DNA from: Escherichia phage T4
Direction: 5' to 3' (one strand)
Length of the DNA stretch: 64,000 nucleotides
Sequence record: NC_000866.4
Below are positions 40,340-48,563 of the stretch, one piece after another (the first letter of the stretch is position 1; each line of letters starts with the position of its first letter). The position numbers were made by a program, and so were the translations under genes. The notes under the pieces are model-generated. The model made no database searches, was not told where the DNA came from, and worked only from the letters and a program-made list of their open reading frames with translations.

Positions 40340-41927
<1,588 letters not shown>

Positions 41928-41949
41928 AATAAAATGGGCCTTGCGGCCC
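41928..41949 (-). terminator. Hairpin between nrdB and denA
   Basis: Minus strand GGGCC-GCAA-GGCCC then AUUUUAUU, immediately before the denA AUG. Confidence 0.55.
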
Positions 41950-41954
41950 ACTCC

Positions 41955-42457
41955 TTAAAAGTATTTTTTAAAACTCATCATAACTTTATCATCAACATCA
42001 TTATCAATCTGTGCAACAAGGTAAGATGACAGTTCTACTTCTTGCGGCGCGGATTGAACATTATCAGAATTAAGATATTCACGAATCCAAGGATATGGAT
42101 GTTTAACCGGAGCATCGGTAATTGGGCATGGAAGACCGCACTGTTTCATACGAGATACAGTTAAGTAATCAATAAAGCTCCACATGCTATTTGTATTTAA
42201 TCCAGGAACATCACCATCTTTAAATAAATGAACTGCCCAGTCTTTTTCCTGGCGGTTAACTTCCATGAAAATATCAACTGCTTCTTGTTCACACTCTTGG
42301 GCAATTTTAACCCATTCATCACCATCAGTACCGGATTGAAGTTGACGAATAATATATTGGGTGCCTTTAAGGTGAAGCTGTTCATCACGTGCAATGAACT
42401 TCATAATCTTGGCATTACCTTCCATGATTTCCATGTTCTTATGGAAGTTAAAGGTAC
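41955..42457 (-). CDS. nrdB: Ribonucleotide reductase small subunit, exon 2
   Basis: Continues exon 1 after a group I intron; contains the second iron-ligand motif (ARDEQLHL); boundary inferred from the E. coli R2 sequence recalled from memory. Confidence 0.8.
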
Positions 42458-43055
42458 CGTATGTTCGATTGAGCTCGCTAATTCTCAACCCGTTCTCTTA
42501 TGAACTGCTGCATGTTACCATGCAGTCCAGACTATATCACAATCCCGGAGGGATTCTCCCCATTTCGAGTCGCTTGACCCTACGTCCGAAGACTAGTCGT
42601 TGAACCTTGTTTTGCAATTGTCGCCGTGCCATCGTTTATATGTTGATGGTGATAAATCTTTCTTATCACAATATGGACAATTCAATTGAATTCTATTTGG
42701 ATTTAATTTACATCTGTCATTATGTTTTAGATAAAATCCAGGACCTTTACCAATGTGACCACAGAAATCACATGTGATTTCTTTTTGTGCAGGATGGGTC
42801 CCGTTCTTAACCATTTCTAATGTTTTTGCTGATGTTCTTTTCTTATGTTCTTCCATCAGAATCTTTAGGTATAGGTCCGTTAGCATCTATCCAAATTTTT
42901 CTATAGTTCAATTGTGCATCCTCTTAAAAGTATAATCATATTTATATTATACTAATTAAAGGTGCAAGCAAAACCTTGGCTGCTAGTTTTCCATAAAGGA
43001 CTTTCCAGCAATTAAAGGAGTTTTCGATAAACGTTACCGTTTAAAGGCGCATTTT
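42458..43055 (-). mobile_element. Group I self-splicing intron in nrdB (598 nt)
   Basis: Interrupts nrdB; shares core blocks with the td intron (CATG.ACCATGCAG..CAGACTATATC and TTTCGAGTC.CTTGACCCTAC); exon 1 ends in U and the intron ends in G at the inferred junctions. Confidence 0.8.
42593..42886 (-). pseudogene. I-TevIII: Truncated intron-encoded endonuclease remnant (I-TevIII-like)
   Basis: 97-aa ORF inside the nrdB intron with Cys/His zinc-finger-like motifs (CDFCGH, CPYCDK) but no N-terminal catalytic domain. Confidence 0.7.
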
Positions 43056-43719
43056 ACGCAAAAGATACATAAAAACGAATAGCTTCTAAGGCATTAATAA
43101 CGTGCAAACAGAGGTAAAGAGATTTCATCAGATCTCGTTTAGCTCTTTGCTCAACGTCTTTATCAGCTAGAATTAGACCTTGGTCTTTATAATATTCAAC
43201 CATGTCTTTAGCATTTTCCCATTCACGGGTTTTAACCAAGACATCATCGTAATATCGCCCAATGGACTCAGCACGTTTCATAATAGCTTCATCTAATACA
43301 ATCTCATCAAACACCTTCGATGGATCAGTATAAAGATTTCGCATGATATGAGTATATGAACGACTGTGAATAGTTTCACTAAAAGTCCATGTAGCAACCC
43401 ATGTATCAAGGCTTGGGTCTGAAATTAATGACATAAGTACAGCAGATGGCGCACGACCCTGAATGCTATCCAAAAGTGATTGATACTTCAGGTTGTTAGT
43501 AAAAATATTTTGCTGATACTGAGGAAGCTTATTAAATTGCGCAGCATCCATCATTAAGTTTACTTCTTCAGGACGCCAAAAAAAACTGATCTGCCGCTCA
43601 ATGAGTTCTTCAAATACTCGATGTCGTTGAATATCATATCGAGCTAAACCTAATCCAGAACCAAAGAACATCGGTTCATTCAAAACATCAACTGGATTTG
43701 TATTAAAAACTGTACTCAT
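43056..43719 (-). CDS. nrdB: Ribonucleotide reductase small subunit, exon 1
   Basis: Contains the first iron-ligand motif (ETIHSRSYTH) and ends ...FYVSFA plus the first nt of a split Cys codon. Confidence 0.8.
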
Positions 43720-44415
43720 TTAGAATCCTTAAATTTACATTTATCATAATGCCATCTTAAAGCATTGCCTTTATTAACTTTCTTACCACAGTGCGGGCAA
43801 GGTGGATACTCTGCTCCTTGTTTAGTTCTCAAAGAAATCAAATCACGGGTTTCTTTAGTATGAGGAACATCTCTTGTCGGAGAAATTGTACCATACATCG
43901 GATTAAGCACGCCGACTTTAGCAGCAGCTATATTCTTTTTAGCTTCTTCAGTTTTAGGCTTTCTCATCTTTTTCTTAGGTTTCTTCGCTTTTAGCCCTTC
44001 CTTTGGTTGCCGCCGATATTTTGTGTTTGGTTTCTTCTGTTAAACGCAGACCTGTTTTCGCTTTTTGACATTTTCAGTCTCGTTTCTTCAGAAATGACCG
44101 TACCTTTGCGAAATTGCGAATTTAACTTCTTTGCATGGGCATATATTTTAGAATGAACTTTATAATGACGTTTCTTAGTTCCTTTCATATTGCACATCAT
44201 GAAAAATGCGAATATAACAGATTTTACCGGATAAATCTTTGATAAAATAGCATGCGCTATAAAATGCTCTCTAGCTGTTAATTCAACTAAATTTTCTTTA
44301 TCATCAGAACCTCCCATGCATCTAGGGATTATATGATGTGTCTCTTTATATTCGGATAAAGGTTCCCGAGCCTGAGCTCGGGAAATTAGGTCGTTATAGA
44401 TTTTTTGATAATTCA

Positions 44416-46680
44416 TTACAATTTACACGCTGCACAATCATCGGCTTTAGGAGTTTCTATTTCATAATCATCAGTACCAGAACCATCACGGGTATTATGA
44501 TAATAGAAATTTTTAATGCCATAATACCATCCGTATAGCATGTCATCAATCATTATTGACATTGGAACCTTTCCTTTTGGAAAAATCTGCGGGTCATAAT
44601 ATGTATTCGCTGAAGCTGATTGACATACCCATTTCAGCATAATAGCTACCTGCGTAAGATAAGGTTTATTACCTTTCTTAGCTAATTTCCATGTATAATC
44701 ATAGAGGTCTATGTTATGCTCAATATTGGGCACGACTTGATTAAAGGAACCCTCTTTTGATTCTTTAACACTTACCGGTCCACGTGGAGGCTCGTAGCCG
44801 TTTGTACTGTTAGAAACTTGGGAAGATGACTCACATGGCATAAGTGCTGATAATGTGCTATTACGGATGCCAAATAGCTTAAGGTCTTCCCGCAGCGCCG
44901 ACCAGTCACAAACGTATTTTGGAGCTGCGATTTGGTCAATCTTTTTATTGTACCAGTCGATAGGTAATTCGCCTCGAGACCAACGAGTGTCTGAATAATA
45001 TTCCGAAGGTCCTTTTTCTTTGGCGAGCTTAATGGATGCTTTAATGAGTCCATACTGTAATCTCTCAAATAGTTCATGTGTTAAATCGTTAGCATCTTCA
45101 TAAGAAGCAAAGTTACTTGCCAGCCAAGCTGCATAGTTGGTAACACCTACACCGAGGTTACGACGCTTTTTAGCTTTTTCTGCTTCAGGAACCGGATATC
45201 CTTGGTAATCCAACAGATTATCAAGAGCACGAACTTGAACTTCTGCCAATTCATTAATTTTATCTTGGTCTTGCCAGTCAAAATTATCTAATACGAATGC
45301 AGAGAGAGTACACAATCCAATTTCAGCATCAGGGCTATTCACATCATTTGTTGGAATAGCAATTTCACAGCACAAGTTACTCTGACGAATAGGTGCCTTT
45401 TCACGAATAAACGGAGTATAGTTATTCGTATTATCAATGAACTGCACATAAATCCTTGCTGTTCCTGAACGTTCAGTCATGAGCAATTCAAATAGTTCAC
45501 GGGCTTTAATACGCTTTTTACGAATATTAGGGTCTTTTTCTGCTGCTTCGTATAATTCACGGAAACGGTCTTGGTCTTTAAAATAAGAATAATAAAGCTC
45601 GCCACCCATTTCATGCGGACTGAACAAAGTAATGTAATCGTTTTTTCCAAAACGTTCCATCATCAAATCATTCAGTTGAACACCATAATCCATATGACGA
45701 ATGCGGTTTTCTTCTACGCCTTTGTTATTTTTCAAAACGAGAAGATTTTCAACTTCCAAATGCCAAATAGGATAATAAGCAGTAGCAGCGCCGCCACGAA
45801 TTCCACCCTGTGAACATGATTTAACTGCAGTCTGAAAATGTTTCCAAAAAGGAATAACACCAGTATGGCGTACTTCACCCATGCCAATCTTAGAACCTTC
45901 GGCACGAATCATACCAACGTTAATACCAATTCCAGCGCGTTTAGAGATATATTCAACAATTGAAGCAGAAGCCTTATTGATAGACTTCAATGAATCTCCT
46001 GCCTCAATAACAACACATGAACTAAACTGTCGAGTCGGAGTACGACAACCAGCCATAATAGGAGTTGGCAATGAAATCTGTCGAGTTGATACTGCTTCAT
46101 AAAAACGGATAACATGTTTTAATCTATCAACAGGTTCATCTTGATGCAGTGCCATTCCAATAGTCATAAATGCAAACTGTGGAGTTTCATAAATTTGACC
46201 AGTGGTTTTATCTTTAACTAGATATTTTTCTTTTAATTGCATTGCCCCGGAATAAGTAAATTCCATATCCCGTTCGTGCTTAATTTTTGATTCTAAAAAT
46301 GTAATTTCTTCTGCTGAATATTTTGACAATAATTCAGGGTCGTATTTACCTGCATTTACACAATAAGAAATATGGTCAATAAATGAACGTGGTTCATACT
46401 GCCCATAAACATGCTTACGAAGAGCAAACATTAAACAGCGTGCAGCTACATATTGATAATCAGGTTCTTCAACCGAAATAGAATTCGCAGCAGCCTTAAT
46501 GACAATAGTCTGAATATCATCAGTTGTCATTCCATCACGGAGATAAGATTTAATATTTTCATATAATTCATAAGGATCTACTGATGTTCCTTCAGCTGCC
46601 CAAGATAAAACTTTAATAATTTTTTGTGGGTCAAAGCTCTGAGAAACACCACTACTTTTGATAACATTAATTAATTGCAT
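44416..46680 (-). CDS. nrdA: Ribonucleotide reductase large subunit
   Basis: 754-aa ORF with the class I active-site motif SNLCCEI; T4 NrdA length. Confidence 0.96.
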   Translation of the reverse strand: MQLINVIKSSGVSQSFDPQKIIKVLSWAAEGTSVDPYELYENIKSYLRDGMTTDDIQTIVIKAAANSISVEEPDYQYVAARCLMFALRKHVYGQYEPRSFIDHISYCVNAGKYDPELLSKYSAEEITFLESKIKHERDMEFTYSGAMQLKEKYLVKDKTTGQIYETPQFAFMTIGMALHQDEPVDRLKHVIRFYEAVSTRQISLPTPIMAGCRTPTRQFSSCVVIEAGDSLKSINKASASIVEYISKRAGIGINVGMIRAEGSKIGMGEVRHTGVIPFWKHFQTAVKSCSQGGIRGGAATAYYPIWHLEVENLLVLKNNKGVEENRIRHMDYGVQLNDLMMERFGKNDYITLFSPHEMGGELYYSYFKDQDRFRELYEAAEKDPNIRKKRIKARELFELLMTERSGTARIYVQFIDNTNNYTPFIREKAPIRQSNLCCEIAIPTNDVNSPDAEIGLCTLSAFVLDNFDWQDQDKINELAEVQVRALDNLLDYQGYPVPEAEKAKKRRNLGVGVTNYAAWLASNFASYEDANDLTHELFERLQYGLIKASIKLAKEKGPSEYYSDTRWSRGELPIDWYNKKIDQIAAPKYVCDWSALREDLKLFGIRNSTLSALMPCESSSQVSNSTNGYEPPRGPVSVKESKEGSFNQVVPNIEHNIDLYDYTWKLAKKGNKPYLTQVAIMLKWVCQSASANTYYDPQIFPKGKVPMSIMIDDMLYGWYYGIKNFYYHNTRDGSGTDDYEIETPKADDCAACKL

Positions 46681-47546: not shown

Positions 47547-48563
47547 CATTATGTTCAGATAAGGTCGTTAATCTTACCCCGGAATTATATCCAGCTGCAT
47601 GTCACCATGCAGAGCAGACTATATCTCCAACTTGTTAAAGCAAGTTGTCTATCGTTTCGAGTCACTTGACCCTACTCCCCAAAGGGATAGTCGTTAGGCA
47701 TTTATGTAGAACCAATTCCATTTATCAGATTTTACACGATAAGTAACTAATCCAGACGAAATTTTAAAATGTCTAGCTGCATCTGCTGCACAATCAAAAA
47801 TAACCCCATCACATGAAATCTTTTTAATATTACTAGGCTTTTTACCTTTCATCTTTTCTGATATTTTAGATTTAGTTATGTCTGAATGCTTATGATTAAA
47901 GAATGAATTATTTTCACCTGAACGATTTCTGCATTTACTACAAGTATAAGCAGAAGTTTGTATGCGAACACCGCACTTACAAAACTTATGGGTTTCTGGA
48001 TTCCAACGCCCGTTTTTACTTCCGGGTTTACTGTAAAGAGCTTTCCGACCATCAGGTCCAAGTTTAAGCATCTTAGCTTTAACAGTTTCAGAACGTTTCT
48101 TAATAATTTCTTCTTTTAATGGATGCGTAGAACATGTATCACCAAACGTTGCATCAGCAATATTGTATCCATTAATTTTAGAATTAAGCTCTTTAATCCA
48201 AAAATTTTCTCGTTCAATAATCAAATCTTTCTCATATGGAATTTCTTCCAAAATAGAACATTCAAACACATTACCATGTTTGTTAAAAGACCTCTGAAGT
48301 TTTATAGAAGAATGGCATCCTTTTTCTAAATCTTTAAAATGCCTCTTCCATCTCTTTTCAAAATCTTTAGCACTTCCTACATATACTTTATTGTTTAAAG
48401 TATTTTTAATCTGATAAATTCCGCTTTTCATAAATACCTCTTTAAATATAGAAGTATTTATTAAAGGGCAAGTCCTACAATTTAGCACGGGATTGTCTAC
48501 TAGAGAGGTTCCCCGTTTAGATAGATTACAAGTATAAGTCACCTTATACTCAGGCCTCAATTA
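47547..48563 (-). mobile_element. Group I self-splicing intron in td (about 1.0 kb) carrying I-TevI
   Basis: Exon 1 ends ...TTGGGT followed by intron TAATTGAGGCC; intron ends ...ATAATG before exon 2; conserved core shared with the nrdB intron. Confidence 0.92.
47694..48431 (-). CDS. I-TevI: Intron-encoded GIY-YIG homing endonuclease
   Basis: 245 aa from ATG at 48431 (MKSGIYQIKNTLNNKVYVGSAKD...), recognised as I-TevI; the ORF track extends 43 codons upstream by in-frame read-through. Confidence 0.95.
   Translation of the reverse strand: MKSGIYQIKNTLNNKVYVGSAKDFEKRWKRHFKDLEKGCHSSIKLQRSFNKHGNVFECSILEEIPYEKDLIIERENFWIKELNSKINGYNIADATFGDTCSTHPLKEEIIKKRSETVKAKMLKLGPDGRKALYSKPGSKNGRWNPETHKFCKCGVRIQTSAYTCSKCRNRSGENNSFFNHKHSDITKSKISEKMKGKKPSNIKKISCDGVIFDCAADAARHFKISSGLVTYRVKSDKWNWFYINA

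Follow-up and report, generated by a model that had tools for sequence, protein, structure and literature searches.

The group I intron of bacteriophage T4 nrdB: splice junction, ribozyme fold and endonuclease remnant

In phage T4 the gene nrdB, which encodes the β subunit of class Ia ribonucleotide reductase (RNR), is interrupted within codon 222 by a well-known 598-nt self-splicing group I intron of the IA2 type, a reading that we regard as virtually certain. The analysis covered a window of 64,000 nucleotides of the T4 genome (record NC_000866.4), in which nrdB occupies 41955..43719 on the minus strand, and it followed up an earlier note that had proposed the intron and its junction from the letters of the DNA. 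The intron itself is a classic, fully characterised element, said to have been discovered by Sjoberg et al. in 1986 (EMBO J 5:2031) and by Gott, Shub & Belfort in the same year (Cell 47:81), and reportedly self-splicing.

Identity of the region

Over its 1765 nt the nrdB region shows 100% identity with genomes of Escherichia phage T4, OZ209023.1 among them, and the 2801 nt of 41455..44255 likewise show 100% identity with GenBank X04140.1, the nrdB record of 1986, titled 'Bacteriophage T4 gene nrdB for ribonucleotide reductase small subunit (B2)'. In both X04140.1 and MT984581.1 the nrdB CDS is joined from two pieces, and the join spans these 1765 nt; a 97-aa URF, I-TevIII (defective), lies within it, denA and rnlA downstream, and mobE and nrdA upstream. 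The element is the same as the T4 nrdB intron of X04140.1 (Sjoberg et al. 1986; Gott, Shub & Belfort 1986; Eddy & Gold 1991): the same 598-nt intron, 97-aa URF and 388-aa product, with no difference in intron or exons. Differences from newer T4 genomes lie solely outside nrdB, in mobE.

Exons, splice junction and protein product

As open reading frames, nrdB appears on the minus strand in two pieces, one (43719..43054) that runs for 221 aa and then stops, and a 3' piece ending at 41955. That these are parted by a 598-nt element, as the earlier note had it, is confirmed in coordinates and length:

43056..43719, minus strand: nrdB exon 1, 664 nt (codons 1-221, then the U that opens Cys222); X04140.1 and MT984581.1 have it as the first part of their joined CDS
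42458..43055, minus strand: group I (IA2-type) intron of nrdB, 598 nt, starting AAAAUGCGCC and ending ...GAACAUACG, with its terminal G at 42458
41955..42457, minus strand: nrdB exon 2, 503 nt (the GU that finishes Cys222, codons 223-388 and the stop TAA at 41957..41955)
Minus strand: ligated nrdB junction as predicted, exon 1 end ...UUUGCGU joined to exon 2 start GUACCUUU

Exon 1 ends ...UUUGCGU and exon 2 begins GUACCUUUAAC. Joined, the exons come to 664 + 503 = 1167 nt, which is 389 codons with the stop, or 388 aa, and the codon rebuilt at the junction from U + GU is UGU, Cys222. The spliced 388-aa translation is, letter for letter in an exact-sequence look-up, the deposited T4 NrdB (AAD42624.1; UniProt RIR2_BPT4), which bears out both the split Cys codon and the 388 codons that had been anticipated. 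It carries the Pfam family Ribonuc_red_sm (PF00268, 128 bits), and in a phmmer search of PDB chains its residues 3-384 match E. coli R2 with E = 1.5e-127. The homology to the class Ia RNR R2 protein is full-length in these alignments, and the rebuilt Cys222 stands under an E. coli R2 Cys with no break across the junction (FAC-SFAF in E. coli), so that the likeness of the junction to E. coli R2 claimed in the earlier note holds column for column. The helix just upstream of the junction, with its iron-ligand Glu (E204 in E. coli R2), is conserved.

The position of the junction is fixed independently by comparison with an intron-less allele, a check that the earlier note had suggested. In phage RB32 nrdB is continuous (1179 nt), and at the insertion site its sequence is TTT GCA TGT ACC TTT (F A C T F); its alignment with T4 contains one 598-nt gap, with borders at exactly 43056 and 42457, which places the splice sites after U43056 and after G42458, just where they had been predicted. 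The placement of this gap is unique, since the flanks differ (GCGT/AAAA ... ACG/GTAC in T4 vs GCAT/GTAC in RB32). Sequence alone may leave intron borders ambiguous, and it is conceivable that the intron is real and that its true junction lies one or a few nucleotides away. When both borders were moved together from -6 to +6 nt, shifts of +2 to +6 ran into a stop, whereas shifts of -1 to -6 kept the frame open and are to that extent permissive. Only register 0, however, combines a U at -1, an intron-final G and a junction Cys, as in RB32 (TGT) and E. coli R2; the deposited T4 NrdB has Cys at this position, and the RB32 DNA alignment permits no other placement of the gap. We consider an offset junction extremely improbable. 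With the junction at register 0, removal of the intron restores the host frame as it stands in the intron-less allele, as the RB32 gap, the identity with RIR2_BPT4 and the colinearity with E. coli R2 all indicate.

A stop codon (U/AA) straddles the 5' splice site in frame with exon 1, and unspliced nrdB RNA should therefore yield only a truncated 221-aa product. Translational bypassing across a 50-nt gap is established for T4 gene 60, and one may ask whether the nrdB gap could similarly be bridged at the level of translation or, by an intein, at the level of protein. The nrdB insert cannot be an intein, because the stop spans the 5' junction and there is no continuous frame through the insert; its gap of 598 nt exceeds that of gene 60 more than tenfold, and the insert contains a ribozyme core. 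Of the readings entertained here we give this one the very least credence, and the sections that follow treat the insert as an intron removed from RNA.

The ribozyme fold

The earlier note had made a group I fold one touchstone of its reading. Such a fold is found, with helices located from P1 to P9.2 and the core, P3 to P9, in canonical order; P3 and P7, which cross each other, are at their canonical places. All features below are on the minus strand, and intron positions count from the first intron nucleotide:

43047..43059: P1, exon GCGU (43059..43056) and intron A1 with intron U5-GCGC9 (43051..43047), the internal guide; AAA loop
42968..43043: 5' half of the ribozyme core, P2 to the 5' strand of P6a
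Intron 13-18/23-28: P2, with a GUAA loop
Intron 36-41: P3, 5' strand CUCCUU
Intron 46-51/70-75: P4, UGCUGG/CUAGCA
Intron 56-58/64-66: P5, UCC/GGA
Intron 76-77 and 451-452: P6 (GC) and P6' (GU)
Intron 82-88/441-447: P6a, GUUUUGC/GCAAAAC
42458..42615: 3' half of the ribozyme core, P6a' to the terminal G598
Intron 458-462/522-526: P7, GACUA/UAGUC
Intron 463-465/470-472: P7.1, GUC-UUCG-GAC, with a UUCG loop
Intron 476-480/485-489: P7.2, GGGUC-AAGC-GACUC
Intron 495-500: P3', GGGGAG
Intron 501-506/510-515: P8
Intron 531-537/542-548: P9, with a GUAA loop
Intron 551-554/561-564: P9.1
Intron 566-572/583-589: P9.2

P1 places a U43056•G43050 wobble at the 5' splice site. It was recovered independently in the minimum-free-energy and centroid folds, and homologues of it are present in the td, phiTE, Staphylococcus and Bacillus phage introns. 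P10, the pairing of the 3' exon with the guide, amounts to 2 bp at best. The terminal nucleotide, at 42458, is G598; the T4 intron ends ...ACAUACG and the RB6 and Bp7 copies end ...AUAACG. Since P7.1 and P7.2, the hallmark of subgroup IA between P7 and P3', are present, the nrdB intron belongs, like that of td, to the IA2-type group.

Support for the fold

Folding was done on an ORF-deleted construct consisting of 9 exon nucleotides, intron 1-88, GAAA and intron 441-598. Its unconstrained fold recovered P1, P2, P4/P5, P6a, P7.1, P7.2, P8, P9, P9.1 and P9.2 (z = -2.3); P3 (CUCCUU/GGGGAG) and P7 (GACUA/UAGUC) can be drawn at their canonical positions.

Evidence from covariation is strongest for the 3' half. 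A distant BLAST search with the 3' core (165-nt query) reached 870 phage records, six of which were fetched. In the 3' core helices of eight phage introns, 97.2% of cells are paired, a figure that drops to 32-42% if the partners are displaced by 1-3 columns; 18 of the 37 pairs are changed on both sides, and not one of 500 shuffles reaches any of the observed measures. Compensatory changes across the eight introns are found in P7.1 and P7.2, while P7, being invariant, is uninformative in this respect. For the 5' half, a MAFFT alignment of the full ORF-deleted introns misaligned P4-P6 of td and PcaP1EGY, and this alignment was kept out of the pair counting; the helices P1-P6a were instead followed with a per-sequence script in the six introns where they were drawn. 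They are fully complementary in each, with differing sequences, the exceptions being a single P5 pair that is mismatched in PcaP1EGY and a bulge in P1 of the Staphylococcus intron, a check that is weaker than the 3' core count because it is hand-guided. The P3 pairs of the six are CUCCUU/GGGGAG, UCUAUC/GAUAGA, UCCAUU/GGUGGA, CCUAUC/GGUAGG, CCCAUC/GGUGGG and CCUCUU/GGGAGG.

The covariance search that had also been suggested came out with a divided answer. Rfam at its gathering thresholds, run over the whole window, returned zero matches. In E-value mode the intron does match RF00028, at 42508..42748 with E = 2.8e-7, but at 35.7 bits it falls short of the threshold of 50, and only the 3' half (J6/7-P7-P3'-P8-P7'-P9) is sensibly aligned. 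Matches to rseX and emrB-Lactobacillus in the same scan (E = 4-9) were dismissed as chance. The gathering threshold is an operational criterion, not a biological one. The td intron scores 40.3 bits against the same model, also under 50, and since both introns lie below the gathering score a standard Rfam scan reports no intron in the window. ORF-less relatives do pass (103.7 bits for the Staphylococcus phage intron, 95.2 bits for that of Bacillus phage BSTP3). The low score of nrdB is thus plausibly explained by its ORF insert of about 350 nt, which lies within the fold, in the P6a loop, and separates the two halves of the core.

These observations bear on the suggestion that nrdB is truly split or decayed, into two polypeptides or a pseudogene, by an unrelated insertion that involves no RNA splicing. 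Automatic annotations that show two nrdB CDSs (OZ209023.1, Bp7, AKM_NP4) might be read in this sense, as might the failure to reach the curated Rfam threshold. The insertion, however, is a complete group I fold with covariation, and it ends precisely where intron-less alleles run continuous; at the junction the second piece lacks a proper start, the TTG listed as its start lying inside the intron; and in curated records and literature the CDS is joined and the insert is a group I intron. A truly split gene seems to us even less credible than an offset junction. The assignment of the element to the group I introns, as it stood in the earlier note, has the architecture and the covariation behind it and accords with its published description (PMC1865063, PMC2790892). 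Every number in that note proved correct.

As to the annotations themselves, OZ209023.1, AKM_NP4 and Bp7 leave the split nrdB unjoined, with two or three CDSs each called 'aerobic NDP reductase small subunit', and in Bp7 exon 1 is further divided into nrdB and nrdB'.

Related introns

The closest relatives are the RB3-type nrdB introns (RB3, RB6, Bp7 and S16-like phages), which have the insertion site and local exon context of T4 (ATGTATCTTTTGCGT before the intron, GTACCTTTAAC after it). The RB3-type intron is 1091 nt long and encodes an active 269-aa HNH endonuclease, I-TevIII, whereas 491 nt of that ORF are missing from T4; relative to the RB6 record, T4 also shows a 1-nt indel at each of the intron positions 63 and 595. 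The ribozyme parts of RB6 and Bp7 are 98-99.5% identical to those of T4, and those of an S16-like phage about 91%. Conservation of intron and exons was compared by setting Bp7, AKM_NP4 and RB6 against 41955..43719. Bp7, with 98-99.5% identity in the intron, has 77-83% in the exons, and the S16-like phage, with about 91% in the intron, has 72-76% in the exons; the exon bases directly adjoining the insertion site do not differ between T4 and the compared phages. An intron so much more conserved than its exons across genera is consistent with recent horizontal homing and co-conversion, of which this pattern would be the signature. Matches to nrdB were found in 868 phage records, only 119 of them with at least 80% query coverage; at about 66% coverage or below the intron portion is absent (in sampled rows, with RB32 checked directly).

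The second T4 intron in the window, that of td (thymidylate synthase), lies at 47547..48563 on the minus strand, 4.5 kb upstream, and is 1017 nt long by our count. It shares with nrdB the IA2-type architecture, the looping of the ORF out of P6a, and long identical core blocks (P7, P7.2, J8/7 and P9). The earlier note had seen core blocks common to the two introns, and several do align: AACGACTA, GTAGGGTCAAG-GACTCGAAA, GATATAGTCTG, CTGCATGGT-ACATGCAGC and GAACATA. Both introns have a stop codon at the 5' splice site, although in td the UAA follows immediately after the site and in nrdB the stop spans it. The td intron differs in its host gene and in its endonuclease, which is of the GIY-YIG family (I-TevI) rather than HNH, and P1, P2, P3, P7.1 and P8 differ in sequence between the two, with compensatory changes.

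Further IA2-type introns with the same helices, structurally close to the nrdB/td core, are found in unrelated phages: in the DNA polymerase genes of phiTE, KP12 and VTCCBPA_211, in a PcaP1EGY gene annotated as hypothetical, in an nrd gene of Bacillus phage BSTP3 and in Staphylococcus phage PG-2021_29. The 3' cores of phiTE, PG-2021_29 and PcaP1EGY are homologous, at 72-76% identity with 85-90% coverage of the 165-nt query; coverage is 70-76% for VTCCBPA_211 and KP12 and 63% for BSTP3. Host genes and insertion sites differ from those of nrdB, and some of the introns are ORF-less; several have an HNH ORF ending, as in I-TevIII, at the P6a'/P7 region. In each of phiTE, KP12 and PG-2021_29 a stretch of about 1 kb contains two group I introns. 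The introns of many relatives are unannotated in their records ('none' or 'hypothetical protein').

The intron ORF

What T4 retains of the endonuclease gene is a C-terminal piece and a short N-terminal stub:

42593..42886, minus strand: 97-aa ORF, the defective I-TevIII remnant, a C-terminal zinc-finger DNA-binding part that is out of frame behind the 491-nt deletion
42843..42911, minus strand: orphaned N-terminal I-TevIII fragment, starting with TTG at 42911..42909 and reading (M)NYRKIWIDANGPIPKDSDGRT, then stop
42939..42946, minus strand: TATAAATA, situated upstream of the intron ORF and matching the late-promoter consensus of T4, with a Shine-Dalgarno-like AAGAGGA after it

By exact-sequence match the 97-aa ORF is the 'Defective intron-associated endonuclease 3' of T4; the stub has 22 codons and ends ...DSDGRT before its stop. 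Mapped against the 1091-nt RB6 intron and its 269-aa ORF, the deletion joint comes after intron position ~208, at about 42848 of the window; it lies between two imperfect repeats of RB6, GAAGAaCA and GAAGAcCA. Pfam finds HNH_3 in the RB6 protein (1.9e-11) and no domain, HNH included, in the 97-aa ORF of T4. Hence, with no Pfam domain in the C-terminal piece and a 491-nt deletion parting it from the stub, so that the HNH motif and the C-terminal zinc finger do not stand in a single ORF, the T4 copy is a defective remnant. The 3' end of the 97-aa ORF overlaps the ribozyme at P6a', P6', J6/7 and the 5' strand of P7, its stop being the UAG of GACUAG.

The deletion of 491 nt was described by Eddy & Gold 1991, as they are cited in PMC1865063 and PMC2790892. 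I-TevIII is defunct in T4 and active in RB3 (PMC1865063), and the T4 nrdB intron is mobilised in trans by MobE and inherited through MobE-dependent gene conversion (PMC2790892). What the intron carries is a dead homing-endonuclease gene, an I-TevIII that has lost most of its HNH nuclease region through the 491-nt internal deletion. Since I-TevIII is dead, the T4 intron would, on published crosses, spread only by hitch-hiking on gene conversion begun by the neighbouring free-standing endonuclease MobE.

That the intron of T4 should do more than travel as a neutral passenger seems to us very unlikely. In one speculative version the 97-aa zinc-finger fragment, preceded by TATAAATA at 42946..42939, which by established knowledge of T4 would be a late promoter, is still made and binds the nrdB homing site; it might, for example, aid MobE-driven homing in trans or modulate nrdB expression. 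In the other, equally speculative, the efficiency of splicing would tie the expression of nrdB to the infected cell's state.

Neighbouring genes

In the sequence analysed, mobE (43716..44416, minus strand) is split into a 141-aa ORF with the HNH domain and an 83-aa ORF with NUMOD3. In MT984581.1 and OZ209023.1 two bases are missing, a G at 43978 and a T at 44062, and MobE is a single 232-aa HNH+NUMOD3 protein. Because the window is exactly X04140.1 of 1986 here and newer genomes differ, the two extra bases are probably either old sequencing errors carried over or a strain difference. PMC2790892 was examined for any remark on how long MobE is or how it is annotated, and it makes none.

On the other side of nrdB (41925..41957, minus strand) a hairpin, GGGCC-GCAA-GGCCC, comes directly after the stop TAA, followed by AUUUUAUU and then by the denA ATG at 41927. 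From this ATG denA is given as 411 nt in X04140.1, RB6 and OZ209023.1; MT984581.1 and RB32 have instead 435 nt from a GTG at 41951, beside the hairpin.

Splicing and significance

From established group I chemistry and the anatomy found here we infer the course of splicing. In the folded pre-mRNA the last bases of exon 1, GCGU, would pair with the internal guide, GCGC, as P1, in which cleavage would fall at the U•G wobble. Exogenous guanosine sitting in P7 would attack after U43056; the terminal G42458 would then take over the guanosine site in P7, and the freed 3'-OH of exon 1 would attack after G42458. Ligation of the exons would bring U and GU together as UGU (Cys222) and restore the 388-aa frame.

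What is established about the nrdB intron is left unchanged by the present analysis. Its practical value is as a positive control: whereas Rfam at curated thresholds is silent on both T4 introns in the window, and recent automatic annotations split nrdB, the junction of this intron could be predicted to the nucleotide from sequence alone.
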